From Escherichia phage ph0011: 64,000 nt of DNA. Shown one piece after another: positions 21,754 to 55,165 of this stretch. Numbering within the stretch: position 1 is the stretch's first letter; each line of letters starts with the position of its first letter. The notes under the pieces were generated by a model that had not been told where the DNA came from, did no database searches, and saw nothing but the letters and a program-made list of their open reading frames with translations. The translations under genes and the position numbers were made by a program. The stretch lies in the sequence record OP557969.1. One strand, given 5' to 3'.

Positions 21754-22347
21754 ATGACAAAGATTGAATTAGATGAAGCGATTAAAGGTTTATCTAATGT
21801 GTGTTTTAGTGGCGGGGCAGCAGGTGCTGACCGCCTTTTTTCTATCTATGCAAAAGATAATGGATTTGAAGTTGTTAATTTTTCATTTAAAGGTCATGAG
21901 CATAGTGTAGATGAAAATACTATATTAGAAATACCATCCAATATTCTATCTGATATTTCTATATTAAAGCAACTAAACATTGCATGTTACTCGTTGCAGA
22001 GAAAAGTACCAAAGCCTGGTTCTTATGTTTATAACTTACTTGCAAGGAATAGTTATCAAATACTTAATACAGAAAGAATATATTGTATTGCAAATATTAC
22101 ATCACCAACTAAGGTGAGTGGTGGTACTGCATGGGCAGTGCAGATGTACATGGATTCAGTTGAAAATCCTGAAATTTATTGTTATGATATGAATTCACGT
22201 TCTGTATTTTATTTTGACACAGTACTGAAAGAGTTTACTGAAACATTCTCAATACCAGAACCACACGGTAACTGGACTGGGATTGGTTCACGTAATGCTA
22301 CACAAAAACACATGGAACATTTTATTACATTTTTCAAGGAAGTATAA
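21754..22347 (+). CDS. SLOG/Rossmann-like protein (DprA/LOG-like glycine motif)
   Basis: 197 aa; FSGGAAGADR and later SGGTAWAV glycine-rich motifs; stop overlaps td start (TAATG). Confidence 0.4.
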   Translation: MTKIELDEAIKGLSNVCFSGGAAGADRLFSIYAKDNGFEVVNFSFKGHEHSVDENTILEIPSNILSDISILKQLNIACYSLQRKVPKPGSYVYNLLARNSYQILNTERIYCIANITSPTKVSGGTAWAVQMYMDSVENPEIYCYDMNSRSVFYFDTVLKEFTETFSIPEPHGNWTGIGSRNATQKHMEHFITFFKEV

Positions 22348-38294: not shown

Positions 38295-39395
38295 ATGAGT
38301 GTAAGTTATACAATTTATAGAAGCAATGGTAGTGTTTATGCTACCATTCCAAATAATGTCATATTGGGGCCAAACCAACCAGGAAGTAACCCAGTTCCGT
38401 TGAATTTCGTCGGAAGAAATAAAGTAAGTTATGGACAAGCATGGAATGAAAACTTTTTACATTTAGTTGAGAATTTTAGTTCGGCTTCAGCACCACGCGG
38501 TAATGTGAACGGTCAACTATGGTACAGAAATGCTGGCAGTACTGGTGAATTATTGATATCATTGGTTGACAATGCTAGACAACCATCAGATGTTGTGAGT
38601 GAAGCTGAGTGGGCGTCTATTCCAATGATTTCTGTGTTTAATACCGTACCAGATGGTGAAAATAGTGTTATGGGTCGTATGGTATTAACCAGTAATGGTG
38701 ACTCACTTCGTGTATTAATGAAAAATAAAGAATGGCGTGAAATTCAAACATCACGCCCTGAGAATAAAGAATATACATCATTATTGGATATTAACTATGA
38801 TAATGGTAAAAAATATATTGAGTTTACACAAAATAATAGTACCAAGCCACTAGCATATTTTAACTTAGGAGGAACGTCACAAGTCGATACTAACAACTGG
38901 ACAACAGTAACTAACGGAACTGGTGTTTTTGAATTTGGTAGTAACTATTTCTATGAATTAAAAATTATGATTAGAGAGGTAAGCGATTCAACAGGTGAAA
39001 TTGTATCAGTTCCACATAATTCAAAAACATTTTTAATCAAAGGTCAATTTTATGTAGATAACCAAGGTACGTTTGTCCCTGGTTCTGTGGGTGCAAGTCA
39101 AATGCCAGACCCCCGCAGGATTACACATCTAGAAACCATTAAAGATGTCATTACCAGTAGTCGCCCGAACTGGGATGTGAACATGGTTATCAATGATGTA
39201 GATCCATCACTACCTAATCCAAACGGCACATCTAAAGCAGATTATGAAAACTGGGTTATTAACTCATTGAACTCTAATAAAAACTTGGGATTTAGAGTTG
39301 ATGGTAGTATTAGCAATCTTGCACCAGGTGAATCTGTGAAATTACAAGCATCAGTGTTGTTAAACATTACAGGTATTCCAATTATTGGTGTATAA
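38295..39395 (+). CDS. hypothetical protein (structural candidate)
   Basis: 366 aa; N/S/T-rich; no motif recognised. Confidence 0.55.
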   Translation: MSVSYTIYRSNGSVYATIPNNVILGPNQPGSNPVPLNFVGRNKVSYGQAWNENFLHLVENFSSASAPRGNVNGQLWYRNAGSTGELLISLVDNARQPSDVVSEAEWASIPMISVFNTVPDGENSVMGRMVLTSNGDSLRVLMKNKEWREIQTSRPENKEYTSLLDINYDNGKKYIEFTQNNSTKPLAYFNLGGTSQVDTNNWTTVTNGTGVFEFGSNYFYELKIMIREVSDSTGEIVSVPHNSKTFLIKGQFYVDNQGTFVPGSVGASQMPDPRRITHLETIKDVITSSRPNWDVNMVINDVDPSLPNPNGTSKADYENWVINSLNSNKNLGFRVDGSISNLAPGESVKLQASVLLNITGIPIIGV

Positions 39396-39400
39396 AAAAA

Positions 39401-39422
39401 GGAGCCACATGGCTCCTTTTTT
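39401..39422. terminator. bidirectional terminator between convergent genes
   Basis: GGAGCC-ACAT-GGCTCC flanked by A7 and T6; plus gene stops at 39395, minus gene stops at 39421. Confidence 0.6.
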
Positions 39423-39885
39423 AATATCTATATGGTAAACTATTGACAAACTGTGTACCTTCACGTATACTTTCCCATAATGAGTAAAAATCTTTCATCA
39501 AGTTTGTGTTAAGCAATGTGTTTTTTGCACCAGGGTGTAATGGTTTAGGCCACGAGCCGATTTTAACCCATGCATATCCAGAGCTTTCATGATTTAATGT
39601 TGGTATAAACTCATTCTCAACTACGATAACAAATGAATAATATTTAAATTTACCATTTTTTGTACAAAATACATCAAATGGTATAATATCAATAATATTT
39701 GGTATTGAGTCACCTAACTCTTCTTTAATTTCTCTCATAAGACCTTGTATTGGTGTTTCGTCGCGTTCAAGCTTTCCACCAACAAATGCCCAATTGTTCG
39801 AATAGGTACTTCTTTCAGAACGTAAATTTAACATCATATGTCCGGTACTTTTTGATAAAAATATAGCACCAACAGCTTCATTCAT
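39421..39885 (-). CDS. Nudix hydrolase
   Basis: 154 aa; Nudix box GGKLERDETPIQGLMREIKEELG (G-x5-E-x7-REUxEExGU pattern); AGGAGG RBS. Confidence 0.75.
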   Translation of the reverse strand: MNEAVGAIFLSKSTGHMMLNLRSERSTYSNNWAFVGGKLERDETPIQGLMREIKEELGDSIPNIIDIIPFDVFCTKNGKFKYYSFVIVVENEFIPTLNHESSGYAWVKIGSWPKPLHPGAKNTLLNTNLMKDFYSLWESIREGTQFVNSLPYRY

Positions 39886-39897
39886 AACAACACCTCC

Positions 39898-41241
39898 TTA
39901 TTTGTCAGTGAAAGTTATTTTCCAATATCCTTGACGATAAACTGGCATAATACTTTTATGCCATTTAAATTTACCATTGTATCTATAATAACCATTATCT
40001 TCGTTGTTATAAATGTAATTACGCACAGTTGATGGGTCAATTAATTCAGCACCGTCGTTGGTAATTTTAAACAAATAATTCGAAGGAATTTCAGTTTCTT
40101 TGTAAATGATGTTATGCATACTGTTATTTACGTAATATTGTTCAGGTATTGCATCAAAAAGAACTGAGCTTTTTTGGACAAATCCATGAATAGTATAATC
40201 AACTGTATAGTTGCTACTATCAAGCTGAACGATAATTTTATTTGCATCTTCATCTTCACCATATGAAGAAATATAGCCTTTGAGTGGATTATCTTCTTCG
40301 ATTGATTGTTGAAATTTAATACCGACTTTTTTATCATCAAAATTGGGTTCCAAATATTTAAGATATTTTTCCCATGAGTATATACCACCATTAGGGGAAA
40401 CATCGGACAATGACTGACTAACTAAAGTTAGTTGATATGTATCTGGTAAATTATATAAAGAATTAGTTATCTCTTCAACTTTAATACATAAGTTTTTTGG
40501 TGTAAAGACATCAGTGATAATATCCGAATAGTCAGACATTTCAATGTCAAATTCATCACGAGCACCTTTTATATTAGTAGTGATCTGTTGAATCAATTTT
40601 GGTTTTTCAACAATAGCTGGTAAAGAAAACCATATTGTTGTTTCAAATGTCAATACCATAATGTCTAAATCTTGGTCAGTTCCTTGTGGAAATCCACGTG
40701 TAGAGAACTGACAATCAATCAACTCTACATCACTTAGTGATGTCCAATCCAACGGGTTTTCAGATAACTGAAGTTGAATACTCGGTGAAAATAAAGTTGA
40801 AATTTGCTCAAATAATTCCATCTTTGTTTGTATTTGAGTTACCCAGATATTCAAATCAAATGTAAATGTCCAAGGAACTGGGTTATGTCTTACGATTTTA
40901 TATTGTGAATCGAGTTCTTTTTTGTATTCATTAATGGCAGGTGATGTGTTTGTTCCCATAACTAATGTTTCATTCGCATTAGAACGTATACTTTTACGAT
41001 CCAGCTTTAGTTGATTAACACTGATTGTCATAATTGGTGCAGATGGAAGAACATTTTCACTATTACCATTGATAATTGCAGCAGCCATTCTTGATATATC
41101 CGCATAACGACATGGAACCTTTTTATATTTTGGGTTCCCATCAGCATCAACACCATTTTGTACTTGAAATTCACCAAAAACTCTGATAAGATGTTTCAGT
41201 ACTCTGCGAAATTGGCCGTCATAATAATAATCTATTTTCAT
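39898..41241 (-). CDS. tail completion / sheath stabiliser, T4 gp15-like (tentative)
   Basis: 447 aa; N-terminus YYYDGQFRRVLKHLIRVFGEFQV...VPCRYA resembles T4 gp15 N-terminus recalled from memory; start overlaps upstream stop (ATGA). Confidence 0.45.
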   Translation of the reverse strand: MKIDYYYDGQFRRVLKHLIRVFGEFQVQNGVDADGNPKYKKVPCRYADISRMAAAIINGNSENVLPSAPIMTISVNQLKLDRKSIRSNANETLVMGTNTSPAINEYKKELDSQYKIVRHNPVPWTFTFDLNIWVTQIQTKMELFEQISTLFSPSIQLQLSENPLDWTSLSDVELIDCQFSTRGFPQGTDQDLDIMVLTFETTIWFSLPAIVEKPKLIQQITTNIKGARDEFDIEMSDYSDIITDVFTPKNLCIKVEEITNSLYNLPDTYQLTLVSQSLSDVSPNGGIYSWEKYLKYLEPNFDDKKVGIKFQQSIEEDNPLKGYISSYGEDEDANKIIVQLDSSNYTVDYTIHGFVQKSSVLFDAIPEQYYVNNSMHNIIYKETEIPSNYLFKITNDGAELIDPSTVRNYIYNNEDNGYYRYNGKFKWHKSIMPVYRQGYWKITFTDK

Positions 41242-42731
41242 TCTGTGTCCTTATGTATACGATAAGCTGTATTTGGTTTAACTGCGTCATGTAATGGAAC
41301 TTTATTATCACTATTTACGAACTTAGTAAGTGCTAAATCTGCACCTTCCCACGGTTTTCTACCACCGTAATCAAAAATAACCCATGAATTCTTAGTTGCA
41401 TTGAATTCCCACAGTGTAACTGGTGTATAATCAGTACGGTAAAAGTAATCACCATCAACTGCATCAGTAGGGAACATGTTTCCTTCTGGAACTGTACCTC
41501 TTGCTGGTGGGATTTTAGGGCGATAATCCTGTTGTGCATCAATATTTCCATATACACAACTTGATGTGAATGGGTCATTGACGTAAGTTACTTTTGGTTC
41601 GCCCCATTTACCATCATTGTACTGAAAAATGTGTGGTTCTTTATAAAAAATACAAAAATCTTCAATATCTTTTGGTGGATTTTCACTGGTCGTGTATTCA
41701 ACATCACAATTTAACCATTTTTTAACACTTTTATCGTACTGGTATAGTGTATACCCAGTTACATCTACATCATTCTCTTTAAAGAAGAAATCACCATCCA
41801 TAGGTTTCTTAGGAAAAACGGTTCCACGCTTGACTTCCAGTGAAATCCATGTATCATTATCGTATTCTTTAAGTATTGGGTATGTTTTTTTCAAAAAATA
41901 CATACCACTTGCAGGTTCTTCGGGGAAATCATATCCATTAAGCATATACTTTGACAAATCAACAGTATCACGACGGTCATCATACAAATGCTCGTTGGTA
42001 TAATGAATATAAGGCACTTCATCATCAGCTTGCATAATGATACGATTCATAATATCCATTTCATTACTATAGTTACTGTTATCAGATGTACCATCATCAG
42101 TGTTACCATTACCATTATTTGGATCATTTGGGTTATCAGGGTAATTGTTGTTTCCTAGTAAGTCGGAGTACTCAGGAGAGTCAGTCAATGGCTTTACTCG
42201 AAGTTTATAAATGTGATGTTGCCAAGTAACAGAGTAACCTTCTGCTGTACGAAACGCATCTTGGACCACATAGAAGCGATTCAGACCAGAATCTTTACCA
42301 AGAACATCATAATCACGTAAATTTGGTAGTTCAATTACATCACCAGGCATGATTTTTCTACCCAATCGTTGCATCATGGTATTGTAGTGGATTGTAATGT
42401 CCATCGTGTTGAAATTAAAGAACAAACCTGGAATTTTCAAGTCAGGTGTTGCTTCTTGAACTTGATAGACACAACTTAGTGTGATTGCTTCAAGATTATA
42501 GTTTCTATTTGGGGTGTCTCCAAAAATTAAATCACCAATACTTGACACAACCGATCCAGAAGATGTATAATCACCGCCATATGATAAGTCTTTGTTATCT
42601 GCAACTTGTTTTGGGCCGACATAAGCGTAAAGCCACATGTCAACACCACCAATGTTGTATTGTTCAGCAATGGCAGAGTCAATGAACTTGTAATCATTGG
42701 TTCTACCTTTTTTCCACATTCTATATGTCAT
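41238..42731 (-). CDS. neck protein, T4 gp14-like (tentative)
   Basis: ATG at 42731 preceded by GGAGA (track ORF starts at TTG 42743); weak resemblance to gp14 in the region MPGDVIELPNL...YKLRVKP. Confidence 0.4.
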   Translation of the reverse strand: MTYRMWKKGRTNDYKFIDSAIAEQYNIGGVDMWLYAYVGPKQVADNKDLSYGGDYTSSGSVVSSIGDLIFGDTPNRNYNLEAITLSCVYQVQEATPDLKIPGLFFNFNTMDITIHYNTMMQRLGRKIMPGDVIELPNLRDYDVLGKDSGLNRFYVVQDAFRTAEGYSVTWQHHIYKLRVKPLTDSPEYSDLLGNNNYPDNPNDPNNGNGNTDDGTSDNSNYSNEMDIMNRIIMQADDEVPYIHYTNEHLYDDRRDTVDLSKYMLNGYDFPEEPASGMYFLKKTYPILKEYDNDTWISLEVKRGTVFPKKPMDGDFFFKENDVDVTGYTLYQYDKSVKKWLNCDVEYTTSENPPKDIEDFCIFYKEPHIFQYNDGKWGEPKVTYVNDPFTSSCVYGNIDAQQDYRPKIPPARGTVPEGNMFPTDAVDGDYFYRTDYTPVTLWEFNATKNSWVIFDYGGRKPWEGADLALTKFVNSDNKVPLHDAVKPNTAYRIHKDTE

Positions 42732-42773
42732 ATTTGTCTCCAAAATAATTCGGGTATATCTTTATTTACCATG

Positions 42774-42839: not shown

Positions 42840-45128
42840 ATGAATCTTACTCAATTGTTCAAAAAAAGCGACGAACTAGCAACATCCCTAGGTCATACTT
42901 TCTTGACTATTGACCATGTGAGTGCTACAGTACTGACTATTGATAGTATCAAGGGCGTGTTCGAAGAAATGAACATCGATGCTGACAAATTGCATAGTCG
43001 ACTGATGAACTATCTTAAAAATACAACGGTTCCAAGTGCACCAAAAAGTACACTCGATGAAGATGCTAATCGCACTTCACTTCTGGTGAACCGTGTTGTA
43101 CATGAGCTTTCGAAAAAATCAGTCATTGAACAACTAAAAAGTGATGATTTTTCGATTGATGCATATTTTGTTCTATTTGAATGTTTATCATTCCCAAACA
43201 CTGCACTTGAAGCTGCTTTGAAAGAAGAAGGCGTTAGCTGTACCGAAGCTGCTCGTGCACTACAGAAACACGTTGAGGCACTGGAAAAGGGTATCAACCT
43301 TCAAAGTATCAATGACGAACCTACTGGAGATAAAAAAGTGGCTCAACCACAGCAATCATCTAAACAAAAAGGTTTAGCAGACTATACAACAAACCTAACG
43401 GCACTTGCAAAAGAAGGCAAACTAGACCCAATGATTGGTCGCCAAAAAGAGCTATCTGCATTGATTGAGACTCTTGCTCGCAAAACCAAAAAGAATGCCA
43501 TCCTGACTGGTGAAGCTGGTGTTGGTAAAACACAAATCATCGACGGTCTTGCACAAGCAATTGCTGATGGTAATGTACCAGAGCACTTAAAAGATGTTGA
43601 AATTCTTTCCCTAAATGTTGGTGCGTTGACTGCTGGGACTAAGTATCGTGGTGAATTTGAGGAACGTATCGATAATTTACTAAAAGAACTAAAGAAACGT
43701 GAAAACACAATTGTTTTCATTGATGAAATCCATATTATGGTCGGAGCAGGTTCTGCAAGCAACGGTTCAATGGACATGAGCAATATGCTTAAACCAGCAC
43801 TATCACGTGGTGAGATTCGTGTAATTGGTGCAACAACATACGAAGAATATCGTAAAAACATCGAGAAAGATAGTGCATTGACTCGTCGTTTTATGAAAAT
43901 TGATGTTGTTGAACCGTCAATCGATGAAACTCGTGAAATTGTGAACGGTCTTAAATCAACTTATGAAAAATTCCATAACGTTGAGTTTACAAAAGATGCA
44001 ATGGATGCAGTAATTTCTCTCAGTGAGAAGTTCTTGAAAAATAAACACTTCCCAGATAAAGCAATTGACCTAATGGATGCTGCTGCTGCGAAAGTGCGTT
44101 CACGTGATAATAATAGTAAACTAATTACAGAGAATTTGATTCAAGAAGTTGTTGCTGGTATTGCTAACTTGGATATCAACGTGGTTGCATGTACAGAAAG
44201 TGAACGTATGCGTAATCTACCAGATGCACTACGTTCACGTGTTTACGGACAAGAAGAAGCGATTCAAAAATTGGTTGATAATGTAATGGTTGCTCGTGCT
44301 GGTCTACGTGATAAGTCGAGTGTTCAGGGTGCTTTTATGTTTGTTGGTCCGTCAGGTACTGGTAAAACAGAAATTACAAAAGCATTAGCTGAAGCAACGG
44401 GTTCAGAGCTTGTTCGTTTTGATATGTCTGAGTTTTCTCAAGAACATACTGTTTCAAAACTAATTGGTTCCCCTCCAGGTTATGTTGGTCACGATTCTGG
44501 TAATGGTTTGCTATTGGATAAGATTGAGCAGTTTCCTAATGCCATTCTACTACTCGATGAAATCGAGAAAGCAGATCGTAAAGTACTACTAACCTTCCTA
44601 CAGGTTCTGGACGAAGGACGTTTGACTGGCTCACAAGGTAAAACTGTTTACTTCAATAACGTAACTGTTATTATGACAACCAACCTTGGTGCGGCTGATT
44701 CAACAAAGCGTAGTATTGGGATGAGTGGTAGTGAAAGTGCACAAGACAAGGCAATTAAAGCATTCTTACCACCAGAATTCATTAACCGTATTGACAGTAT
44801 TGTTACGTTTAATGAACTAAGTAGTGAAGCAATTGACAGTATCATTGATAAATTCATGGGAAGTTTGAATGAACAAGTTAAACATCGCAACGTAAAAGTT
44901 TCACTAACGAAAGCTGCACGTGGATGGCTTGCAAAAAATGGTGTTCAGGTAGGTATGGGTGCACGACCAATGAAACGTACAATTGAACAAAACATTCGCG
45001 TACCACTAGCGAAGGAAATGTTGTGTGGTTCACTGGTAAATGGTGGTAACATTACATTTGATGTTATCAATGACAAACTTGGTATTAAACCAAAACGTAC
45101 TAAAGCAGTTGAAAAAACACTAGCTTAA
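42840..45128 (+). CDS. clpA: ClpA-like AAA+ unfoldase (Clp_N domain, D1 and D2 ATPase modules)
   Basis: 762 aa; GGAGAA RBS; D1 Walker A GEAGVGKT and Walker B FIDEIH; D2 Walker A GPSGTGKTE and Walker B LLLDEIEKA; ClpP-docking-type loop SIGM; collinear with E. coli ClpA. Confidence 0.85.
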   Translation: MNLTQLFKKSDELATSLGHTFLTIDHVSATVLTIDSIKGVFEEMNIDADKLHSRLMNYLKNTTVPSAPKSTLDEDANRTSLLVNRVVHELSKKSVIEQLKSDDFSIDAYFVLFECLSFPNTALEAALKEEGVSCTEAARALQKHVEALEKGINLQSINDEPTGDKKVAQPQQSSKQKGLADYTTNLTALAKEGKLDPMIGRQKELSALIETLARKTKKNAILTGEAGVGKTQIIDGLAQAIADGNVPEHLKDVEILSLNVGALTAGTKYRGEFEERIDNLLKELKKRENTIVFIDEIHIMVGAGSASNGSMDMSNMLKPALSRGEIRVIGATTYEEYRKNIEKDSALTRRFMKIDVVEPSIDETREIVNGLKSTYEKFHNVEFTKDAMDAVISLSEKFLKNKHFPDKAIDLMDAAAAKVRSRDNNSKLITENLIQEVVAGIANLDINVVACTESERMRNLPDALRSRVYGQEEAIQKLVDNVMVARAGLRDKSSVQGAFMFVGPSGTGKTEITKALAEATGSELVRFDMSEFSQEHTVSKLIGSPPGYVGHDSGNGLLLDKIEQFPNAILLLDEIEKADRKVLLTFLQVLDEGRLTGSQGKTVYFNNVTVIMTTNLGAADSTKRSIGMSGSESAQDKAIKAFLPPEFINRIDSIVTFNELSSEAIDSIIDKFMGSLNEQVKHRNVKVSLTKAARGWLAKNGVQVGMGARPMKRTIEQNIRVPLAKEMLCGSLVNGGNITFDVINDKLGIKPKRTKAVEKTLA

Positions 45129-45163: not shown

Positions 45164-48100
45164 TTACTTAACTATTAATATTTTTTGAATATCATTACCA
45201 CGAACTCGTAGACTGTTAGTATACACAGAAAGGTCTATTGTATAACTATTTTGAGTATAACGTTTAAACTTATCATAACCGCCCAAATTAATTCCGTTGA
45301 AAGAATATGTAGTATCATGTTTGAAATCGTGTTCTGCACTGTACATTACTCCACGGAGTAAGTTGTTTGTATTTCTAACTTCAACTTTTTCATATCCAAT
45401 CGATATAATGTCACTCTTGTTAGCAGCGGAGCCTGATAACACATTATTTCTAACATTATAATGGCTTACGGAAAGAGGTTGTGCTACATAAGTTGTGTTT
45501 TCTTCACTAATGGTTGTTATGTTAGTGATGGTAGCGTCAGCCACATCAATATACATACTATCAACCATTGGATATTCATACACCCACACACCTTCATTAT
45601 TTTTTGTCGGTTTGATATCTTTCGCATCATATTCAATCACGTTAATTTCTAAACAATCCGGCATTTTAGTTCTTACTAATTCACTAAGAACACCTTCCCC
45701 TGTAATTGGTAGATTATAACCGTTGTCTATAGTAATACCATCATCATTAAATATTTCATTTGATACAACCCAAACATCAACATCATCAGGTGTTACTCCG
45801 TCATTATACTTACCACCATTTAAAGTAGTATCATAAAAAACGTCATAATTAATCACATCAATGGTGTAATTTCTGTTTTGCTCATATAATTTAATATCAC
45901 CCTTGGTAAATTCTGGGTCAGCAAATGTTCTAACACGAACAATGTTCAATGCAAGATGTTGTACTGGCTGATTCAGTTGTCCAAGTGTGATGTTATCATA
46001 TCGAAGAACATTACCAGAACTATCAACCAACTCAATCGTTTCTTTTCCTGTAGTTCTTACAGTGAATAGAATAGGAGTTGTATTATGTTTGATATTAGAC
46101 ACACGTAATATGGTTTCCCATGTACGATTTTGATATCGAATAAAATCTTCACCATCCGGTGTGAAAATCATCACCTTATCACCATCAGATAAGTCACTGT
46201 CAACGATTTCAGCCTCAGTTAAGCTATTAATAGAACGTACACGATAGAAATATTTTTCTTCAAACGGTGATGCCGTTTTATTAATATCATGTTCAATCTT
46301 AGCATATGAAGGAATACTAACAATTGCTTCTGTATGTTTATATGGGTTGATAATTGCCATACCCTCGGTTTTATATCTGCTATTATTACGCAATTGCACT
46401 AGTGATTCAGTATCAAATCCATAACCATCAACAGTGAATCTAATATGCCCAACTGCACGACTAGCTGGATTTATTTCAGATATATCGATAATATAAGGAT
46501 CAACTTCATCATCTTTAACTTCCCATTTGATAGCTGAAGTTTGTGATTCTAATGCAAGGTTGTCAAATGCATTCATATCATTGAAGAACTTAGCTTCAGC
46601 AATACTATCAATTATATATTGATAATCCGAATACATAGGGTTATTTTGATCTTGTGGTAAATCATCTAGATTTATTTCAGCAAGTTTAATCATTTCACCA
46701 TTAGTAATGAAATAATCTTCCATGAAATCATCAATACTTTTATCATCTGGTATACTTTGGTATTCACCATTGATATTTAAGTAGACATGTTTTCTTGGCA
46801 TCATAGTAATAGCATAGATATCAATAGGTGTTTTTGAAAGAATTTCTTCTGCTTTTTCATACATATCAGCAGAGTCTTTATCAAACAACCCTCTCATGGC
46901 TGCCAGTACATGGACCGCATCGGAATAGAAACGTGTATCACCACCAATTTCATCATAACGATAAACATATACACCGTATTCAACTTCAAGTTTCACTTTA
47001 ATATCATGTTCAGATGCATCTGGATATTTTTCTGTAATAAAAGAAATATATTTTTCATATAATTCTTTACTTATTTCAAAATATCCATAGTTATAATCAT
47101 TACTTGAAGAAAAACCTAATGGTAGTCTAGTACTTGGGTTATCATTATAAACCAAACCACTAAATCCACAGCCAACCTCATCATGAATCTTATCATCACT
47201 GATATCTTTATAAAGTTTCAAACGGTTTGCTAATGTATTGTACTGAACATAGTGTCGAAGGTCAGTAAACATTTCATTATGCGTTGATTCGTTATAAATG
47301 CGTTCAAGTGTAGCAGTAAATTCATCAGTTGCTTCTAAATCATCAGCATGTTCTTTATACCACTGGTTTACACCATTTGCAGTTCCTAGTGTTACATCTA
47401 ATTCTGGATAGTACGTTTGTAATAGATACGCATTAACCAAGTCAAATGATTGTTCATTATACACAGGGTAAGAATATATATAACGTTGTAATTCATAGGT
47501 ATTAACAGAATCTTTTTCATTTGATTGATACTTATTATTAACACTAATCAACTCATTAATGTTTGCCAAATCTTTATTCGGTTTACATTGAATATTATCA
47601 TAATGCATAATAATATCAATTTCTTGAAATCTTCTATTTGGTGCAATAAAATCACTAGGCAGAGAACCTACTTTCTCCCATTTTTTAGTGGTTTCATTAT
47701 ATTGAGCGTACTCATAATCCCAAATATCCTTTTCAGTTTTAACCCACGAACCATCAACAAAAATATACCCATTAGGATCTAAATCATTACAAAGACCTTT
47801 GATTAAGTCATCATCAGACGTTTTTTGTTCTATCTGTGAACGGATTTTTGTACGATATGGTTTCACCTCTTCAAAGTACTCAACAATTTGGTTAATCAAA
47901 TTATCATTTGAATAGTTTTGTACCAAAGATTGTTCCAAACCAACAATATAGATATAGGATGTTTTAAATACCCAATCAACAACACCCTGTTCTACGTGTA
48001 CATATTTGACCATATCAAAAACAATTTCACTTTGGTGTAAATCGAAAGAATTTTTTAGCAAAGCAAGTGCTTTTCTAATATTAATTTCACGATTACTAAG

Positions 48101-51100
48101 TGAACCGTCCTCATTATGAACATTATAATCTACATAAAACAAATCGTTAAGCTCAATAGTACTACGTTGTCGCCCAATAGCTTTCCAATAAATTGAATCA
48201 CGTGATTGAGATTTGATATATAAAGTCCAAATGTTTTCACTATCTGTGACTCTAATTATATCACCAACTTGATAGTTTTTAGCATTTGCTTCTTCTAAAC
48301 TTATCTCTTGGATGTAAGCAGTTTTGCTATCATACCCAACATCATACCAATCTGCATAAGACCAGTATTGAGTCATATCTAATGATGTTCCGAGTGATTC
48401 AACATAATCCGATTGCTTAATCATTTTATGTTGTCCTTCACCTTTATTTTCTAAAGTTATAGTAACAACACTACCTGCATTAGCTGGACTATTCATTAAC
48501 TGAATATATCCGTTTTCATCGAAGTGAATAAAATAAACAGCACTAGTTGATAATGGAGTCGGTAGATAACCGCTAGAACTTAAAATAACAGCGTCATTTT
48601 CTTTAAATTTATCCTTTTCAACTGCAATTACAAGTTCATTATTATAAGTTAATACACGGAACGAAACCTCATTAGGGTTAACTTCTGTAGTTTTAACATT
48701 AAACACATCTTCCATAACAACACTATTAGTAGTTATGTTTTGTGATCTATAATAATTATTTGCACTTTCTACAAAGTTTCTACGTGCCTCTATTATATTC
48801 TGGAACCAAGTTTTATTAGAGCCTAAACCAGTGTCAACTTCTGGATATAATAAATCTACAACCTTACCTGACTTCGTAGTTTCTTGACCAATTAGAGAGT
48901 TCCACATAGAGTCCCAAATTAGTGGGTTAAAGTTGTAACTTTCACCCTCTTTGCAAAGTTGATATTGGTCATGTTTAACAACTTCTGTATTGTCCATATA
49001 GTAAGAAATAGTCAAAACACTAGTATCATCATTAACTTCAAACTGCATATTACTAAGAATAAAAGAGTTTTCATTAATTGGTGCGAACCAAGGAATGTTC
49101 AACTGTGATGGATCTTTAATAATACGTGCAATGTCAGTACATGATTTTGTTCTGGTATGAATAGGTGGTACATAAATTGTATCACGTACCCAGAAATAGT
49201 ATTTTGTTACATAACTGTCAGTGGAGCTATCATATTCCAAAAATGTACTATAATTATCTTCAAGTGCTGTTCCACTTGGAAGATACATATTATTATTTTT
49301 GTTTTTCTTAGCAACATCTTTACAGTACTTATCCCAGTTATATGGTTCTACTGGTGAACAAACCCATTCCAACACATCAATAGTACTATGTGGCAACAAA
49401 CGACCCCAGTTGTAACGTTTATATTCATTGGTTGCGTCAATATCAACATTTCCATCTGCATCATAAATGGCACGAGTATAATCCAAATAAAAAGCGGTGC
49501 TAGTGTTCCACCATACTTGACCAACTTTTTCAGCACCCCACGCCTGAACCAATTCGCCATTGCTATTATATTGAGCAGGGTCGATTGGTGAAGTATATGT
49601 TACGTTTTGCATTGCTGCACCAGGAATAACACCATTAATTGGGTCATAAACATTTAGATATAATGCAGTAATGTTTGTACGTTCATCATATGTAGTTGGA
49701 CGTTCAAACAAAGTACTTTGTGGTGCTTTAAAACTATATTTTTTATCAATATATGCTTGACGCTCTTCAGTACTCACAAAACGCGAAACATAACGATACA
49801 AACGAGGGCGTGTATCTGGGTCAGTAAATTCGATATTAATTGAAGTATCAAATGGAACCACCATAACTTTGGAATCATCCCCAGCAGTATAATATTGACT
49901 TTCTACTGTTAAAGTATCTGGCATAAAGTTAGTTTCGTCCACAAAATAATAGTAATCACCATCTTCAAGAGGGATATCATCAGATAGAGTTACTTTACAG
50001 AATTTCTCAGCGTAAACATCTGTGGTTTCGATTGGTGTAATAGAAACCATTTTAACATTAGTGTCAATTAATTCAAAAATGTTCCATAACCCATTTCCAT
50101 CTTTGAACATCCATACTGATTCAGGATTTTCACCTTTACCATTGATATACAACATACGGTCATTGAATGCAGTACTGAAATCTTTCGTAGTATAAGATAC
50201 TTCATCTAATGTAACTGGACCAATATCAGGCAGTTGGATGTGTTCACTTCTACCACTACGCATTGGGAAAGAGAATTTACCATTTGGACGAGTAATCCAT
50301 TGTGGGTCTTTTCCTTGTTCACCAAAGAATACAATATTGTTTCCATTACCATTTGATGTTGCATTTTCATCAAAAGACATCATTTGTGGCTGCTGCTTAA
50401 ATTGGTCATTAATCAATTTAAATTGAAGGTTTTTCTTTCCATCGATGTTACCATATGTACCAACTTTAAACGCCCATTCTTGTAATGCTTTATATTCATC
50501 AGTATCATAGGATTTAGAAACACGAAGAACACGTTCTAAAACTTGGTTTGTACCTTTGTCATGAATAAATCCTTTATAGAAATCAACACGACTTACATCA
50601 CTACTAATCATACGTTGTAGATAATCACGAGATTGATAACCAATCAAATGGCTAGACAATTCTTGTAATTGTACATCGCTAACGGGATGTTCATTGTCAT
50701 AGTAATGTTGAAAATCTGTTACTAGAGTTTCAAATGATGGTATTGTACCAGATTCCAAAATAATAAAACCAGGTGCTTGTAATCTACCAGTCCATGAACC
50801 AGTAATGTACCCATACATTTTAATTAGTTCCTGGATAGAACCATAAGTTGGTTGATAGATATAATCACCAAAAATAGTCTTATCATCAAATATAACAGCA
50901 TGTTCATATGAACACAAACTTAAGCGGATTAATGCAATACGCTTATTAGAATCGGTTGTTCTAACAGTGAATATATTACCAATACGTGAAGTTTCGATTT
51001 CATATTGACGAATACCTTGGTTATTATCATCAAGCAATGACCACACACCACCATTATTTTGTGTAATAGACTGTACTGAACCAAAATCCGAACCAAACTT

Positions 51101-54100
51101 AGCATTTGCAGCACTTGGTGTACAAGAGATAAATTCGCCAGTTACCAGAGGACTCTGACTCCATATCACAAAATCTTTAGCAATAGTGTGCCAATCTTGC
51201 TGAATACCATCTTGATTAACATCTTCGAAAATCCAGCCATGTTCTTTAAGATACTCACCATATCCACAAATAAAAGTGTATACTTCTTGATAACTATTGA
51301 AAATAGTCCCATATTCAATAGAAGCCTCAGACTTCCATTCATTATAATGAACAATATTACGGTTTTCCAATTTAAGAGTTACTTTTCTTCCATTTTTTAC
51401 TGGAAGTTTATATTTAAATTTCGCACCAACCAAATCATATCCATCAATTTGATATGCACTACCATTCCATGTAATTTTGATGGCACTCATCTGTTCATCG
51501 CGAATGTTATTCGAACGCACCAGACCAATCGTTTGGTTTTCTTGTGAAATAAGACCAAATGATTTAGCGTTGAATGTTAATTGATCTGCTTTAGTAAAGC
51601 CACCAATTTTATGTCCCACATTTACGTAAGACGAACGTACAACATCTCCATATTTTGTAGTAATATTTTTATTTTGATACATCAAATAATCACTAACAAA
51701 CATTTGATATCCAATTGTTCTTGTGTTATCTTCACCATGAACAGTTGTGTTTTTATCAAAATTCACACGATTGCGGGTATCCCCGTACAGAAATTGTTCA
51801 CCAGTGGTGATAATTTCTTTCAAATTGTCATTACGGGTATCCCAATAATAGTTGGCAAATTGTGCAGGTTTAGCTTTATACAAAAGTAACATTTGGTCAT
51901 ATGCAAACAATGTGGTGTTCATATACGTAAATTCCATATCACCCATGTCGCCATACGCCCAAGGTTCTGCTCGGTGAACTAAAGATCCAGACACTAATCC
52001 TAAAACTTCAGGAGCAATATACTCAACCACACAAATATCTACACCGGATGATGTTTTATTTCCAGTTTTAGTAATTTTAAATGGTTGTACACCAAATCTT
52101 TTATATTTGTCATACTGACCACGGCGGTCGCCATATAAAATTGTCCCAGTACTACTATCGCCGATTGTATCATTTACATCCCAAAGTCCACTAGGAACCA
52201 AATCACCTTGTTCATCAGTTACAAGTGCCTCATATACATAAACTACATCACCATCACGTTCACCAACTTGGACAGCGGTTGGTTCATACTCTTGGTTCCA
52301 CCAAGTAGGACGTTGTGTAAACCCAAACATTTCCCATGGATGTGTAGCAGGGCGATATGTACCATATTGATCAGTATAGATTGCACGCCATGAACCACGA
52401 GCAGGAATTTCAGTACTTTTACCATCAACAACATAATAGGTTCCAGTATAGTTCCATGTTCTCCAGTTATTAGGATCATAATCATGTGTACTATTACTAA
52501 TACCATTAGATGCAGTGAAGTTAATATAACCACGTAATAGAAGTGTTTGTTTTTCTTCTGCACTATATTCAGTTTTTGTAAAATATGGTGTAGGGAAAAG
52601 ATCATCACTATTCAATACAGGGACATAATCAACATCTTTGAATTTATTGTCAATACTATTGAAAATTCTATTTTCAAGTTCATATACAACATCATCCATT
52701 TTATCAACACCATTGATAACACGGTATGCTTTAGAAATAATACCAGTATGGCTGATATTATAATAGCTAGGTTTACTACCAGCAGTTAGGAATGTTGCTT
52801 TCTCAGGAACGTATGCTTGTAGAATACCTAAAAACTGTGGAGTTGGTGGTATAAATGCACGAATAAGACCAGATGTACTACCCACATTGTCATAATAGAA
52901 TGGGAATGAACTATCACGACCCATATTAATAGTTGCCAAAATAGAATCAACGATGTTAGCTGCACTATTTTGTAAAAAGTTAGTTGGGTTTTCATTGTAC
53001 ATTCTAAGCATTTGTGTATTAAATTTATTAATGAATCTGAAATATTCAGATTGCATAAACATAGTTGCTTCAAATAAATCAATATCTTCATTTGCAGTAT
53101 GAGCCATCAATGGGAGCATAGAAGCTTCATTTTGAATAATTTTAGTTCCTACTCCATTATTCACTAATCCCTTAGCTAAACGTTCTTCATAATCGTTGAA
53201 GTCATCAGCATAACCACTAGTGATATTCTGTTGAATAATATCCTGAAAATGAAGAGTATAGTCTCCTTGATTAATATATATAATATTGGAGTTATATGGG
53301 TTATTTTGTAAGTTAATTGGAACTTCATATGCACCTAATTCTTTATCAGGTGTTACAGTACTGCTATAAGTTCTAATTTGAATAACAGAATCATCATCCA
53401 ATTCAACACTGTTATCGATTGTGATACTTTGCACTTGACCTTTTAATACATTCTTGGTATATTTGGAGATATTAACACCATCAACAACAACTTCAATAAT
53501 ATCAGAGTCATTGTCTAAAACTTTTTGTGCCAATTCAAAAGTATGGTCATATTTTAAAACCTGAATACCATCACCACTAATTTGATGCCAGTCCAAATAT
53601 GTTTCACGTTCAGCTTTATAGTACTGATATGTTTTATCAACTTCGATGACATATGCATACATACCCTCGACTGGTTCTTTAAACAGTTCCATATCATAAA
53701 CAGAACTAAAGACTCGATACATATCAGTACGTTTGACTTGAGGTGTCTGTTTTACAAATTGTTTAGAGAATTCTTTTGAACGCACCCAATCAGTTTGAAG
53801 ATTCATTTTATTATTTTCATCAATGATGTTATAATAATACAAACCACCGATTTCAACTTCAACACCAAGATGGTCATATGTATAACGTTGTGATTGTAAA
53901 AAGTTTTCATAAGTGTAATAGTTATAATCACCAAGTTCAATGTTATACCCATATACACTATCAGCCGCGTAGTTATAGTTGATTTTAAATCCAAATAATG
54001 GTGAACCTTTAAATGTACTGGATGGGTACGTGGTGCTGTTATCTAGTTTGATTCCATTACGATCATAAAGTTGGAATTGAGGAAAGACGTTAACACTTGG

Positions 54101-55165
54101 CTTCGCCTGTGCACGAACCCATAATGTTCCATTCCAATACATAGAATTATTGCCGTACTCATTTCCTTTTGTGACCAAAACTACGTCACCATTTTGTGGT
54201 TCACCACTTGGACGGGACTCAGTTTCTTCATTTGGATCTAGTGCTAAGCCATAAACGCGTGTACCATCTTGCATTTTTTTAACATACACTTTATAAATTC
54301 TATTGTTTTCACCATCATTACCAATACTGGTGAATAGAATACGCATACCATCTTGTGGAATAATACCATCAATGCGAATACCGCTATTGACATCTTTTTG
54401 AATAATATCTTCAGGTTTGATACTATCAGAAAAAAGTTCAACTGTTCCACGGAATTTTGTACCGTAGTTAATTAGCTCGATATTTTTATTATATTCGATA
54501 ATTGGTGCACGAGCACGAATAAAACGAGAATCTTGCATTAGCTCTTCAGTCAAGATAGAACCGTCTTCTAGTGTTTCACCTAAAGTATACCAAAAGTTTT
54601 GCAAAGACCATGTATTACCATTAAGTGCTCCACGTTCCATTACAATGTAATCAGGTGTAATGATATTATAAGAGTTTTTGGTATCCCAAAGATACGAACT
54701 AAAATTGTTCATTTTATTTGGGTTAATTGCAGGAGTCCATGCATAAAACTTACCGTTAAATAAACGACTTTCATTATCGGTTAGTGCTCCGTAATGACTC
54801 ATGTATCCAACAAGATCATCATAAAATTGAATTGAACGAATTGTTGAATCATCATTTTTAGAGACATAAGCAGTGGACAACTGATATAGTTGACGTGCAA
54901 CAGAACTTTCATGCAAGAAGATATTACCAGCGGCAGCCGGAGAACCCATGTCACCAATATAACCGTCAACCAATTCGTTTTCAGCCGGATTAAACCATTG
55001 TTGAATAACATCATCACTGACTTTTTGAATATCTTCTAAGCCTTGCATCCACTCAGGCAATCTTTTGATAAAAAGCTTTTTCTGTACTGCTTCAGCCATC
55101 TGTGTAGGTTGAAACTTAAAATTATTAGTCATTTTTTCTGGACTCCATATAATTCGTTCATTCAT
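45164..55165 (-). CDS. giant virion protein, 3333 aa (baseplate-associated by synteny; function unknown)
   Basis: Uninterrupted 10-kb frame in an AT-rich genome; ATG 55165; directly downstream of gp6-like gene in the baseplate operon; no motif recognised by eye. Confidence 0.8.
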   Translation of the reverse strand: MNERIIWSPEKMTNNFKFQPTQMAEAVQKKLFIKRLPEWMQGLEDIQKVSDDVIQQWFNPAENELVDGYIGDMGSPAAAGNIFLHESSVARQLYQLSTAYVSKNDDSTIRSIQFYDDLVGYMSHYGALTDNESRLFNGKFYAWTPAINPNKMNNFSSYLWDTKNSYNIITPDYIVMERGALNGNTWSLQNFWYTLGETLEDGSILTEELMQDSRFIRARAPIIEYNKNIELINYGTKFRGTVELFSDSIKPEDIIQKDVNSGIRIDGIIPQDGMRILFTSIGNDGENNRIYKVYVKKMQDGTRVYGLALDPNEETESRPSGEPQNGDVVLVTKGNEYGNNSMYWNGTLWVRAQAKPSVNVFPQFQLYDRNGIKLDNSTTYPSSTFKGSPLFGFKINYNYAADSVYGYNIELGDYNYYTYENFLQSQRYTYDHLGVEVEIGGLYYYNIIDENNKMNLQTDWVRSKEFSKQFVKQTPQVKRTDMYRVFSSVYDMELFKEPVEGMYAYVIEVDKTYQYYKAERETYLDWHQISGDGIQVLKYDHTFELAQKVLDNDSDIIEVVVDGVNISKYTKNVLKGQVQSITIDNSVELDDDSVIQIRTYSSTVTPDKELGAYEVPINLQNNPYNSNIIYINQGDYTLHFQDIIQQNITSGYADDFNDYEERLAKGLVNNGVGTKIIQNEASMLPLMAHTANEDIDLFEATMFMQSEYFRFINKFNTQMLRMYNENPTNFLQNSAANIVDSILATINMGRDSSFPFYYDNVGSTSGLIRAFIPPTPQFLGILQAYVPEKATFLTAGSKPSYYNISHTGIISKAYRVINGVDKMDDVVYELENRIFNSIDNKFKDVDYVPVLNSDDLFPTPYFTKTEYSAEEKQTLLLRGYINFTASNGISNSTHDYDPNNWRTWNYTGTYYVVDGKSTEIPARGSWRAIYTDQYGTYRPATHPWEMFGFTQRPTWWNQEYEPTAVQVGERDGDVVYVYEALVTDEQGDLVPSGLWDVNDTIGDSSTGTILYGDRRGQYDKYKRFGVQPFKITKTGNKTSSGVDICVVEYIAPEVLGLVSGSLVHRAEPWAYGDMGDMEFTYMNTTLFAYDQMLLLYKAKPAQFANYYWDTRNDNLKEIITTGEQFLYGDTRNRVNFDKNTTVHGEDNTRTIGYQMFVSDYLMYQNKNITTKYGDVVRSSYVNVGHKIGGFTKADQLTFNAKSFGLISQENQTIGLVRSNNIRDEQMSAIKITWNGSAYQIDGYDLVGAKFKYKLPVKNGRKVTLKLENRNIVHYNEWKSEASIEYGTIFNSYQEVYTFICGYGEYLKEHGWIFEDVNQDGIQQDWHTIAKDFVIWSQSPLVTGEFISCTPSAANAKFGSDFGSVQSITQNNGGVWSLLDDNNQGIRQYEIETSRIGNIFTVRTTDSNKRIALIRLSLCSYEHAVIFDDKTIFGDYIYQPTYGSIQELIKMYGYITGSWTGRLQAPGFIILESGTIPSFETLVTDFQHYYDNEHPVSDVQLQELSSHLIGYQSRDYLQRMISSDVSRVDFYKGFIHDKGTNQVLERVLRVSKSYDTDEYKALQEWAFKVGTYGNIDGKKNLQFKLINDQFKQQPQMMSFDENATSNGNGNNIVFFGEQGKDPQWITRPNGKFSFPMRSGRSEHIQLPDIGPVTLDEVSYTTKDFSTAFNDRMLYINGKGENPESVWMFKDGNGLWNIFELIDTNVKMVSITPIETTDVYAEKFCKVTLSDDIPLEDGDYYYFVDETNFMPDTLTVESQYYTAGDDSKVMVVPFDTSINIEFTDPDTRPRLYRYVSRFVSTEERQAYIDKKYSFKAPQSTLFERPTTYDERTNITALYLNVYDPINGVIPGAAMQNVTYTSPIDPAQYNSNGELVQAWGAEKVGQVWWNTSTAFYLDYTRAIYDADGNVDIDATNEYKRYNWGRLLPHSTIDVLEWVCSPVEPYNWDKYCKDVAKKNKNNNMYLPSGTALEDNYSTFLEYDSSTDSYVTKYYFWVRDTIYVPPIHTRTKSCTDIARIIKDPSQLNIPWFAPINENSFILSNMQFEVNDDTSVLTISYYMDNTEVVKHDQYQLCKEGESYNFNPLIWDSMWNSLIGQETTKSGKVVDLLYPEVDTGLGSNKTWFQNIIEARRNFVESANNYYRSQNITTNSVVMEDVFNVKTTEVNPNEVSFRVLTYNNELVIAVEKDKFKENDAVILSSSGYLPTPLSTSAVYFIHFDENGYIQLMNSPANAGSVVTITLENKGEGQHKMIKQSDYVESLGTSLDMTQYWSYADWYDVGYDSKTAYIQEISLEEANAKNYQVGDIIRVTDSENIWTLYIKSQSRDSIYWKAIGRQRSTIELNDLFYVDYNVHNEDGSLSNREINIRKALALLKNSFDLHQSEIVFDMVKYVHVEQGVVDWVFKTSYIYIVGLEQSLVQNYSNDNLINQIVEYFEEVKPYRTKIRSQIEQKTSDDDLIKGLCNDLDPNGYIFVDGSWVKTEKDIWDYEYAQYNETTKKWEKVGSLPSDFIAPNRRFQEIDIIMHYDNIQCKPNKDLANINELISVNNKYQSNEKDSVNTYELQRYIYSYPVYNEQSFDLVNAYLLQTYYPELDVTLGTANGVNQWYKEHADDLEATDEFTATLERIYNESTHNEMFTDLRHYVQYNTLANRLKLYKDISDDKIHDEVGCGFSGLVYNDNPSTRLPLGFSSSNDYNYGYFEISKELYEKYISFITEKYPDASEHDIKVKLEVEYGVYVYRYDEIGGDTRFYSDAVHVLAAMRGLFDKDSADMYEKAEEILSKTPIDIYAITMMPRKHVYLNINGEYQSIPDDKSIDDFMEDYFITNGEMIKLAEINLDDLPQDQNNPMYSDYQYIIDSIAEAKFFNDMNAFDNLALESQTSAIKWEVKDDEVDPYIIDISEINPASRAVGHIRFTVDGYGFDTESLVQLRNNSRYKTEGMAIINPYKHTEAIVSIPSYAKIEHDINKTASPFEEKYFYRVRSINSLTEAEIVDSDLSDGDKVMIFTPDGEDFIRYQNRTWETILRVSNIKHNTTPILFTVRTTGKETIELVDSSGNVLRYDNITLGQLNQPVQHLALNIVRVRTFADPEFTKGDIKLYEQNRNYTIDVINYDVFYDTTLNGGKYNDGVTPDDVDVWVVSNEIFNDDGITIDNGYNLPITGEGVLSELVRTKMPDCLEINVIEYDAKDIKPTKNNEGVWVYEYPMVDSMYIDVADATITNITTISEENTTYVAQPLSVSHYNVRNNVLSGSAANKSDIISIGYEKVEVRNTNNLLRGVMYSAEHDFKHDTTYSFNGINLGGYDKFKRYTQNSYTIDLSVYTNSLRVRGNDIQKILIVK

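Follow-up and report, generated by a model that had tools for sequence, protein, structure and literature searches.

A Nudix hydrolase encoded behind the gp15-like gene of Escherichia phage ph0011 resembles MutT/NudG/NudI-type pyrophosphohydrolases

The Nudix enzyme of phage T4, NudE.1, cleaves ADP-ribose, Ap3A, FAD and nicotinamide adenine dinucleotide (NAD) caps and decaps NAD-RNA in vitro (bioRxiv 10.1101/2024.04.04.588121). Phage Nudix domains, including some encoded among morphogenesis genes, have been proposed to process ADP-ribose derivatives (PMC9503650, PMC7824862), and morphogenesis-linked Nudix proteins have been proposed to be packaged (PMC9503650). Here we describe the open reading frame (ORF) at positions 39421-39885 of a 64,000-nucleotide stretch of Escherichia phage ph0011 (sequence record OP557969.1), the whole of which is referred to as the window. 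Sequence comparisons confirmed that this ORF encodes a genuine Nudix hydrolase with intact catalytic residues. By the same comparisons its product resembles the (deoxy)nucleoside triphosphate ((d)NTP) pyrophosphohydrolases of the MutT/NudG/NudI type and falls outside every characterised equivalog family. The literature searches made turned up no paper characterising its subfamily, PHROG 1198, or its orthologues.

The clear Nudix box reported in the initial annotation was borne out. The ORF starts with ATG and carries GKLERDETPIQGLMREIKEELGD at residues 37-59, a regular-expression match that fits GX5EX7REUXEEXG; relative to the consensus used, GX5EX7REUXEEXGU, the sole departure was the final 'U', an Asp in the ORF at a position where the family varies or has a gap. 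The Pfam model PF00293 matched residues 4-122 with 56.8 bits (gathering cut-off 21.1; E=3e-15). The best full-length profile was PHROG 1198, 'MutT/NUDIX hydrolase' (E=8e-45, residues 1-153; next family 2.7e-10), which was also the family of the RSL1 and PA5oct homologues. The Nudix box together with the PF00293 and PHROG 1198 matches therefore confirmed the Nudix identity, far beyond chance. An AlphaFold2 model built from the family alignment (mean predicted local distance difference test score 90.5) had the Nudix alpha/beta/alpha fold, with residues 45-60 forming the catalytic helix. The ratio of nonsynonymous to synonymous substitution rates (dN/dS) against phages 121Q and UE-S1 was 0.041-0.046, pointing to strong purifying selection on the gene.

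Conservation was assessed in 32 aligned homologues from the databases and in 60 distinct sequences from viral contigs, the latter 41-96% identical. Residues G36, G37, L49, R51, E52, E55, E56, P95, E100, W106, L116 and G119 were invariant in the first set; G36, G37, K38, E43, R51, E52, E55, E56, E100, W106, H117 and G119 were found in 60/60 sequences of the second. The REx2EE motif (R51, E52, E55, E56) on which the initial annotation had asked for a careful alignment was thus fully retained, and since E52, E55 and E56 were invariant in the 60 sequences, the loss of catalytic glutamates that it had named as telling against the enzyme was not observed. The invariant E100 aligned with the yeast Dcp2 residue mutated in the PDB entry titled 'Dcp2 Nudix domain (E198Q mutation)', as well as with the NEE...YAWVK segment of NudI; it is probably an additional metal ligand or the general base. 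Further downstream, the family-specific W-P-K-P-L-H-P-G loop was kept in nearly all of the 60 sequences (H117 and G119 60/60, P113 59/60, P115 58/60, L116 56/60) and represents a putative substrate-specificity element.

The characterised enzymes nearest to the ORF were NTP pyrophosphohydrolases. Searching PDB sequences with the family profile returned MutT (1.3e-13, 1e-12), E. coli NudG/CTP pyrophosphohydrolase (9.4e-12) and NudI (4e-11) at the top, with Dcp2 at about 5e-10. Foldseek against the PDB placed NudI/YfaO at ranks 1-3 and NudG at rank 4, and RppH and BdRppH were among the top 20 structural matches. When NCBIfam models were scanned against 32 family members, matches were obtained for MutT and NudG in 32/32 and for NudI in 29/32, followed by NudB (24/32), the RppH models (23-24/32), NudE (6/32), NadM (3/32) and NudC (2/32). 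The nearest cellular relatives in a search of 5.8 billion proteins, 131-133 residues long, carried the source label '8-oxo-dGTP diphosphatase' and had NudG, PRK08999 and MutT as their best models. Neighbours in the BFVD viral structure library were uncharacterised phage Nudix proteins (BcepSaruman, RSL1), a T4-type NudE appearing at rank 47. The MutT and NudG alignments ended just before the family loop; NudI was the only one of the top PDB matches to align through, running along the N-E-E..Y-A-W-V-K strand into the C-terminal region, with D-L-N-A-A where the family has the invariant P-L-H-P-G loop. As the C-terminal region that recognises the base lies beyond the end of the MutT and NudG alignments, recognition of 8-oxoG or cytosine cannot be read from them.

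We therefore favour, at a probability of about 0.45, the reading that the ORF encodes a (d)NTP pyrophosphohydrolase, the substrate class being the one suggested by its nearest relatives. The product would be a soluble, divalent-cation-dependent, non-virion Nudix pyrophosphohydrolase, and its phage-specific subfamily, PHROG 1198, would belong to the MutT/NudG/NudI-like branch. Two or three Mg2+ or Mn2+ ions on a nucleotide polyphosphate would be held by residues E43, R51, E52, E55, E56 and E100, and K38 would contact phosphate; the pocket for base and sugar would be made up of W32, F34, F80, Y82, Y104 and W106 together with the P-L-H-P-G loop; attack by water would then yield a nucleoside monophosphate and pyrophosphate. 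Presumably made with the tail proteins in middle or late infection and remaining in the cell, the enzyme may trim the (d)NTP pool of damaged, non-canonical or surplus (possibly pyrimidine) dNTPs during replication and packaging of the ~350-kb genome. Its role during genome replication would be one of pool sanitising or dNTP recycling.

Several observations weigh against this assignment. The ORF scored well below the equivalog cut-offs for MutT (TIGR00586/NF008044, 34.7 vs 97.9 and 36.8 vs 148 bits), with a match spanning the N-terminal part alone, up to residue 61, and below those for NudI (NF012016, 32.4 vs 95 bits) and NudG (NF007834, 32.7 vs 156 bits). NudI was the top structural neighbour and its score was below the cut-off, so the protein is NudI-like and yet no member of NudI, and an identity of 28% to NudI does not transfer specificity. 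Dcp2 and RppH were close runners-up in these comparisons: the E-value spread of the top structural matches was small, both lying within about two orders of magnitude, and single-sequence phmmer against PDB sequences had the Nudix domain of yeast Dcp2 as its best match (E=2.5e-7, residues 25-137). Co-expression with the tail genes in middle or late infection was deduced from operon structure and from general statements on phage PA5oct, whose published description places structural genes as middle/late in general terms, its main text giving no gene-level timing. A housekeeping role does not explain the tight linkage to gp15 described below. Phage 121Q encodes a MazG-like NTP pyrophosphohydrolase beside NrdA/NrdB (KM507819.1, 28070-28807, L096), and a pool-cleaning role would therefore be partly redundant; counting this MazG-like enzyme, a NudE-like enzyme and the gp15-linked Nudix, the lineage has at least three nucleotide pyrophosphatases. 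Substitution for a dUTPase was also considered and set aside: the idea is weakened by the 121Q MazG-like enzyme beside NrdAB, and no whole genome was scanned for Dut. The paper on the related phage CBB mentions no dUTPase.

The first-ranked Dcp2 match, which extends over E100/E198 and the C-terminal helix, bears on a different activity. The enzyme could act on RNA 5' ends, as an RppH-like pyrophosphohydrolase or as a Dcp2/NudC-like decapping enzyme (NAD, Np4N caps), and so promote late decay of host or early phage transcripts. The RppH matches in 23-24 of the 32 members, the in vitro decapping of NAD-RNA by T4 NudE.1 and the basic isoelectric points (pI) of marine family members (8-9.5) are in line with such a function. 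We nonetheless consider it quite unlikely. Scores lay far under the RppH equivalog cut-offs (NF001936/7, 26.4 vs 118 and 22.5 vs 139 bits), and the ORF lacks any additional domain for regulation or RNA binding. In enterobacterial members the pI is acidic to neutral (4.9-6.8), the value of 6.3 for the ORF being unlike what we would expect of an RNA-binding decapping enzyme, and late co-expression with tail genes would be odd timing for host shut-off.

T4 NudE.1, the comparator put forward in the initial annotation, proved not to be the counterpart of the ORF product. BLASTP aligned the ORF to T4 NudE over 103 residues of the N-terminal two-thirds, around the Nudix box, at 25% identity (E=0.004). 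PHROG 1185, the T4 NudE.1 family, matched residues 6-72 of the ORF with E=2.6e-4, as compared with 4.7e-74 for T4 NudE and 5.7e-47 for 121Q gp540. Orthology to T4 NudE.1 was rejected on this identity, on the assignment to PHROG 1198 and not 1185, and on the presence of a separate NudE orthologue at the window start. The latter was recognised through 121Q gene 540 ('NudE nudix hydrolase'), which is 38% identical to T4 NudE (E=3e-17) and whose 3' part aligns to window positions 1-266. The macro-like ORF downstream gave no Pfam match at E<=1e-3. On the basis of these alignments the phage lineage has two unrelated Nudix enzymes, and the NudE-type gene is the better candidate for chemistry on ADP-ribose or NAD derivatives.

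This distinction bears directly on the function proposed in the initial annotation, a nucleotide-signal or NAD-derivative degrading enzyme. Its enzymatic half stands, the ORF being a Nudix hydrolase with intact residues; its NAD/signal half found little to sustain it, as the nearest relatives were MutT, NudG and NudI, and nothing in the neighbourhood of the ORF pointed to signalling or NAD. In full, the proposal would be that host signalling is modulated, or NAD-based defence countered, through hydrolysis of ADP-ribose, NAD(H), dinucleoside polyphosphates or immune signals derived from NAD, such as cyclic ADP-ribose isomers. It can draw on the published proposals and the T4 NudE.1 activities cited at the outset, and on the label 'ADP-ribose pyrophosphatase YjhB' that some sources give to distant family members; since Nudix substrates are hard to predict and cannot be read reliably from sequence, it keeps some standing. 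It is weakened because the NudE-type gene, with the macro-like ORF about 0.8 kb downstream, suits such substrates better. The ORF lies outside the NudE clade, models for ADP-ribose and NAD enzymes matched just 2-6/32 members and weakly, and the related phage CBB has NAD-salvage genes elsewhere in its genome. Moreover, 0/76 conserved neighbourhoods contained Macro, NADAR, sirtuin or TIR-type genes; the neighbour that they had in common was gp15.

Sequence markers argued in the same direction. ADP-ribose pyrophosphatases are reportedly marked by a Pro ~15-16 residues past the Nudix box, ApnA (diadenosine polyphosphate) hydrolases are said to have a Tyr 16-18 residues past it, and NADH diphosphatases (NudC) reportedly carry SQPWPFPxS downstream. 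The Pro marker was absent from the ORF: C74 and T75 occupy +15/+16, the Pro conserved in the family falls at P69 (+10), and the alignment showed none at 74-75. The Tyr marker was likewise absent, positions 75-77 reading T-K-N and the conserved Tyr being Y82 (+23), and the SQPWPFPxS array was missing from the ORF sequence. Overall, we regard an ADP-ribose or NAD-directed function for this ORF as unlikely.

Homologues of the ORF were found in many large phages. Megablast of positions 39000-41300 returned 46 phage records, the best being UE-S1 (89% nucleotide identity), followed by PBECO4, 121Q, phAPEC6 and G17 (~87%), all of the jumbo-phage genus Asteriusvirus, which marks the window as DNA of an Asteriusvirus-like jumbo coliphage; the homologous genes were labelled 'MutT-like protein', 'MutT/NUDIX hydrolase' or, in one record, 'nudG'. 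At the protein level, identity was 96-97% to Asteriusvirus proteins including 121Q gp578, PBECO4 and phAPEC6 gp249 (121Q gp578 and phAPEC6 gp249 being annotated 'MutT/NUDIX'), 78% to gp469 ('mutT') of Klebsiella phage RaK2, 73-75% to the proteins of GAP32, CBB (CBB_232) and Serratia phage BF, 61% to Vibrio phage 2.275.O gp421 and 54% to Pseudomonas phage PA5oct gp161. By these identities the ORF is an orthologue of a phage protein already annotated in dozens of Asteriusvirus, RaK2-like and PA5oct-like genomes. The PA5oct Nudix (MK797984.1) is annotated as just 105 residues (locus 6103-6420). The tblastn match of the ORF protein there begins at locus 6001, right behind the gp15-like gene, which ends at 5993, and the deposited start codon is therefore probably placed too far downstream, dropping the N-terminal strands.

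Three cistrons of the same orientation, [~500-aa]-[gp15-like]-[Nudix], make up the operon, in which the ORF comes last (Table 1). Its Shine-Dalgarno sequence lies 5 nucleotides from the ATG and abuts the TAA of the upstream gp15-like gene; a ribosome-binding site is annotated at the equivalent position in the UE-S1 record. Between the Nudix gene and a convergent 366-residue structural gene sits a terminator hairpin (-17.8 kcal/mol, z=-5.65, 0/200 shuffles folding as well), at a site homologous to one where the UE-S1 record annotates terminators; a simple terminator scan did not list it, and the region was then folded directly. No convincing promoter could be assigned from the promoter scans: sigma-70-like sites showed no excess (34 vs 30.7 expected from shuffles), and the T4 late motif TATAAATA was under-represented (1 vs 10.5 expected). 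Homologues of the ~500-residue protein are annotated as structural, and two of them, CBB_234 and PA5oct EST35_0163, were detected by virion mass spectrometry. The ORF caller starts this gene at TTG 42743; an ATG at ~42731 (…gagacaaatATGacatat…) is also present and better matches the 1494-nucleotide length annotated for the 121Q and UE-S1 homologues.

Table 1 Features of the Nudix locus and of other parts of the window (aa, amino acids; nt, nucleotides)
Feature	Position	Strand	Remarks
Nudix hydrolase ORF	39421..39885	-	ATG start, 154 aa + stop, 17.7 kDa, pI 6.3
Nudix box, aa 37-59, GKLERDETPIQGLMREIKEELGD	39709..39777	-	regular-expression match; metal-binding catalytic loop-helix
Invariant Glu100 codon, motif N98-x-E100-x2-G-Y-x-W106	39586..39588	-	60/60 conserved
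Family-specific loop W112-P-K-P-L-H117-P-G119-A-K, before C-terminal helix	39523..39552	-	
Shine-Dalgarno GGAGGTG (39891-39897) + gp15-like TAA stop (39898-39900)	39891..39900	-	read from sequence
Bidirectional intrinsic terminator hairpin GGAGCC-loop-GGCTCC, flanking A-run + T-run	39395..39422	.	RNA fold
gp15-like tail sheath stabiliser/completion protein, 447 aa	39898..41241	-	Pfam PF16724 T4-gp15_tss, E=1e-20
~500-aa protein, first gene of the operon	41238..42743	-	no Pfam match; overlaps gp15-like start by 4 nt
ClpA/ClpB-like double-AAA+ ATPase	42840-45128	+	PF07724, PF00004, ClpB_D2-small; divergent from tail-completion operon
3333-aa giant ORF	45164-55165	-	RaK2 homologue annotated virion structural protein
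NudE-type Nudix gene, 3' part	3-266 (stop codon 264-266)	+	121Q gp540 orthologue; 5' part + Nudix box outside window
Glutaredoxin	268-516	+	Pfam PF00462; directly behind NudE-type gene
Macro-like ORF	1096-1572	+	homologue of 121Q 'Appr-1-p processing (macro) domain' protein; ~0.8 kb downstream of NudE-type gene

The linkage to gp15 extended far beyond the Asteriusvirus genomes. The trio [~400-500 aa]-[gp15-like]-[Nudix] recurred in RaK2, Vibrio phage 2.275.O, PA5oct and CBB, as well as in marine metagenomic contigs with a Nudix protein 42-49% identical. A scan of IMG/VR identified at least 590 contigs encoding Nudix relatives. Linkage was counted at the best 80 loci, 77 of which were preceded by at least 1 kb of sequence, for a family delimited at >=41% identity; a gp15-like gene ended 0-48 nucleotides upstream of the Nudix gene, on the same strand, in 76/77 loci. 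The genes downstream of Nudix varied across the family. Pairwise identities were higher for Nudix than for gp15 (RaK2 78% vs 58%, CBB 75% vs 61%, the relative L017 75% vs 47%), indicating that Nudix is the more conserved of the two proteins. Collectively, the loci compared indicated that the gp15-Nudix pair is near-universal across a large clade of big myoviruses. The synteny did not hold for all homologues: the ~34%-identical proteins of RSL1 (Ralstonia) and BcepSauron (Burkholderia) sit among metabolic genes.

Published virion proteomes obtained by electrospray ionisation tandem mass spectrometry (ESI-MS/MS) were compared for phAPEC6, CBB and PA5oct. The phAPEC6 proteome contained gp248 (gp15-like), gp250c, gp251c and gp253, and the Nudix protein gp249 was not found in it; the CBB proteome contained CBB_230, 231, 233 (gp15-like) and 234, and CBB_232, the Nudix protein, was not found in it. 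In the PA5oct record, gp162 (gp15-like), gp163 and gp159 are flagged 'ESI-MS/MS' and the Nudix gp161 is not. Packaging of the protein in the virion was accordingly rejected as the principal explanation on its absence from three virion proteomes, a very low copy number still being possible.

The enzyme could also act on a non-nucleic-acid diphosphate, such as dihydroneopterin triphosphate (NudB-like, folate) or prenyl diphosphates, or have an assembly-linked or low-copy virion role that would account for its fixed place behind gp15. The adjacency at 76 of 77 loci, with Nudix the more conserved partner, fits such an explanation, as do the proposed packaging of morphogenesis-linked Nudix proteins (PMC9503650) and the presence of thymidylate synthase, listed as virion-associated, in the phAPEC6 virion proteome. 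The three independent virion proteomes speak against it, since they lack the Nudix protein and contain its neighbours. Matches of the NudB and isopentenyl diphosphate isomerase type ranked below the NTPases, conserved order in a vertically inherited block of structural genes may suffice to account for the linkage, and conservation of the full catalytic set is contrary to a purely structural role. We thus hold both the non-nucleic-acid substrate and the assembly role to be very improbable. The presence of thymidylate synthase among virion proteins is reminiscent of older reports that place folate enzymes in the T4 baseplate.

A further reading is that the gp15-linked Nudix is a dedicated late-infection effector, conserved throughout a very large clade of big myoviruses and distinct from both housekeeping NTPases and T4 NudE-type enzymes. 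Such an effector might be an RNA 5'-end decapping enzyme or pyrophosphohydrolase that clears earlier transcripts, or else it might hydrolyse a nucleotide-based alarm or defence molecule that the host makes late. We judge this speculative and rather improbable. If true, the invariant P-L-H-P-G loop would represent a new substrate specificity, and constant placement after the tail-completion gene would guarantee late expression in stoichiometric amounts.

Further features were recorded in the window and in related genomes. The thymidylate synthase ORF at 22347-23987 (plus strand) encodes 546 residues, as compared with 309 in 121Q; its residues 1-117 and 386-546 are 57% and 70% identical to the 121Q enzyme, far below the values for neighbouring genes. 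The ~265-residue in-frame insert gave no Pfam match even at E<=1; it may represent an intein, a domain insertion or replacement by mosaicism. The divergent arrangement of the ClpA/ClpB-like gene and the tail operon is kept in RaK2, CBB and Vibrio phage 2.275.O. Marine myovirus contigs with the gp15-Nudix pair (L011-L013) also encode a ribosomal protein L11 homologue (438-863, minus strand; PF03946 and PF00298), near gp13-like and deoxynucleoside monophosphate kinase-like genes. In another marine relative (L014, 5453-8957, plus strand), Nudix is followed by a cluster resembling nucleotide-heptose/sugar synthesis, which comprises PfkB and CTP_transf_like (HldE-like), an epimerase/dehydratase, a PNK3P/GmhB-like phosphatase and 2-oxoglutarate-Fe(II) oxygenases.

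The finding itself is ordinary, an auxiliary Nudix hydrolase that is conserved and that the annotation of many public phage genomes already includes. What is unusual about it is limited to its constant place behind a tail-completion gene, a modest synteny curiosity. New here are the separation of the ORF from the NudE.1 counterpart, the second, NudE-type Nudix at the window edge, the placement nearest to the NudI/MutT/NudG NTPases, the near-universal gp15-Nudix pair and the absence from three virion proteomes. Because the lineage has two different Nudix enzymes, blanket ADP-ribose claims for jumbo-phage Nudix proteins should not be extended to this ORF. With at least 590 contigs, conservation above that of the essential tail protein gp15, a non-virion protein and an invariant loop motif not known from any characterised Nudix enzyme, the subfamily lends itself to substrate screening as a cheap and well-defined target. 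Sanitising of (d)NTPs, if true, would bear on the mutation load of phages with ~350 kb genomes; an RNA-cap or signal-degrading function, if true, would be more noteworthy.

Set against known systems, the ORF is closest to its orthologues in RaK2-like and related jumbo phages, with which it shares 54-97% identity and the common gene order [structural]-[gp15-like]-[Nudix]; its copy differs from the closest of them by ~3-5% at the protein level, with no substantive difference. T4 NudE.1 is, like the ORF product, a small (~150 residues) myovirus Nudix enzyme with an intact Nudix box, but its gene lies in the e/lysozyme region of T4, whereas the ORF lies in a tail operon. Dcp2 (yeast/human) shares the alignment of E100 to its catalytic Glu E198 and similarity into the C-terminal helix; Dcp2 and RppH rank below the NTPases in profile and structure searches, and the ORF product differs in being acidic and not basic and in having no Dcp2 regulatory domain. 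The 8-oxo-dGTP diphosphatase MutT and the CTP/pyrimidine (d)NTP diphosphatase NudG have in common with it the N-terminal pattern L-R-S...W-x-F-x-G-G-K and the overall size, its scores being 3-5x below their equivalog cut-offs. NudI/YfaO of Enterobacteria (PDB 3oga, 3n77, 6dt3), which reportedly prefers pyrimidine dNTPs, is the top structural neighbour, and the ORF differs from it in being phage-encoded, in its place in a tail operon and in its P-L-H-P-G loop.

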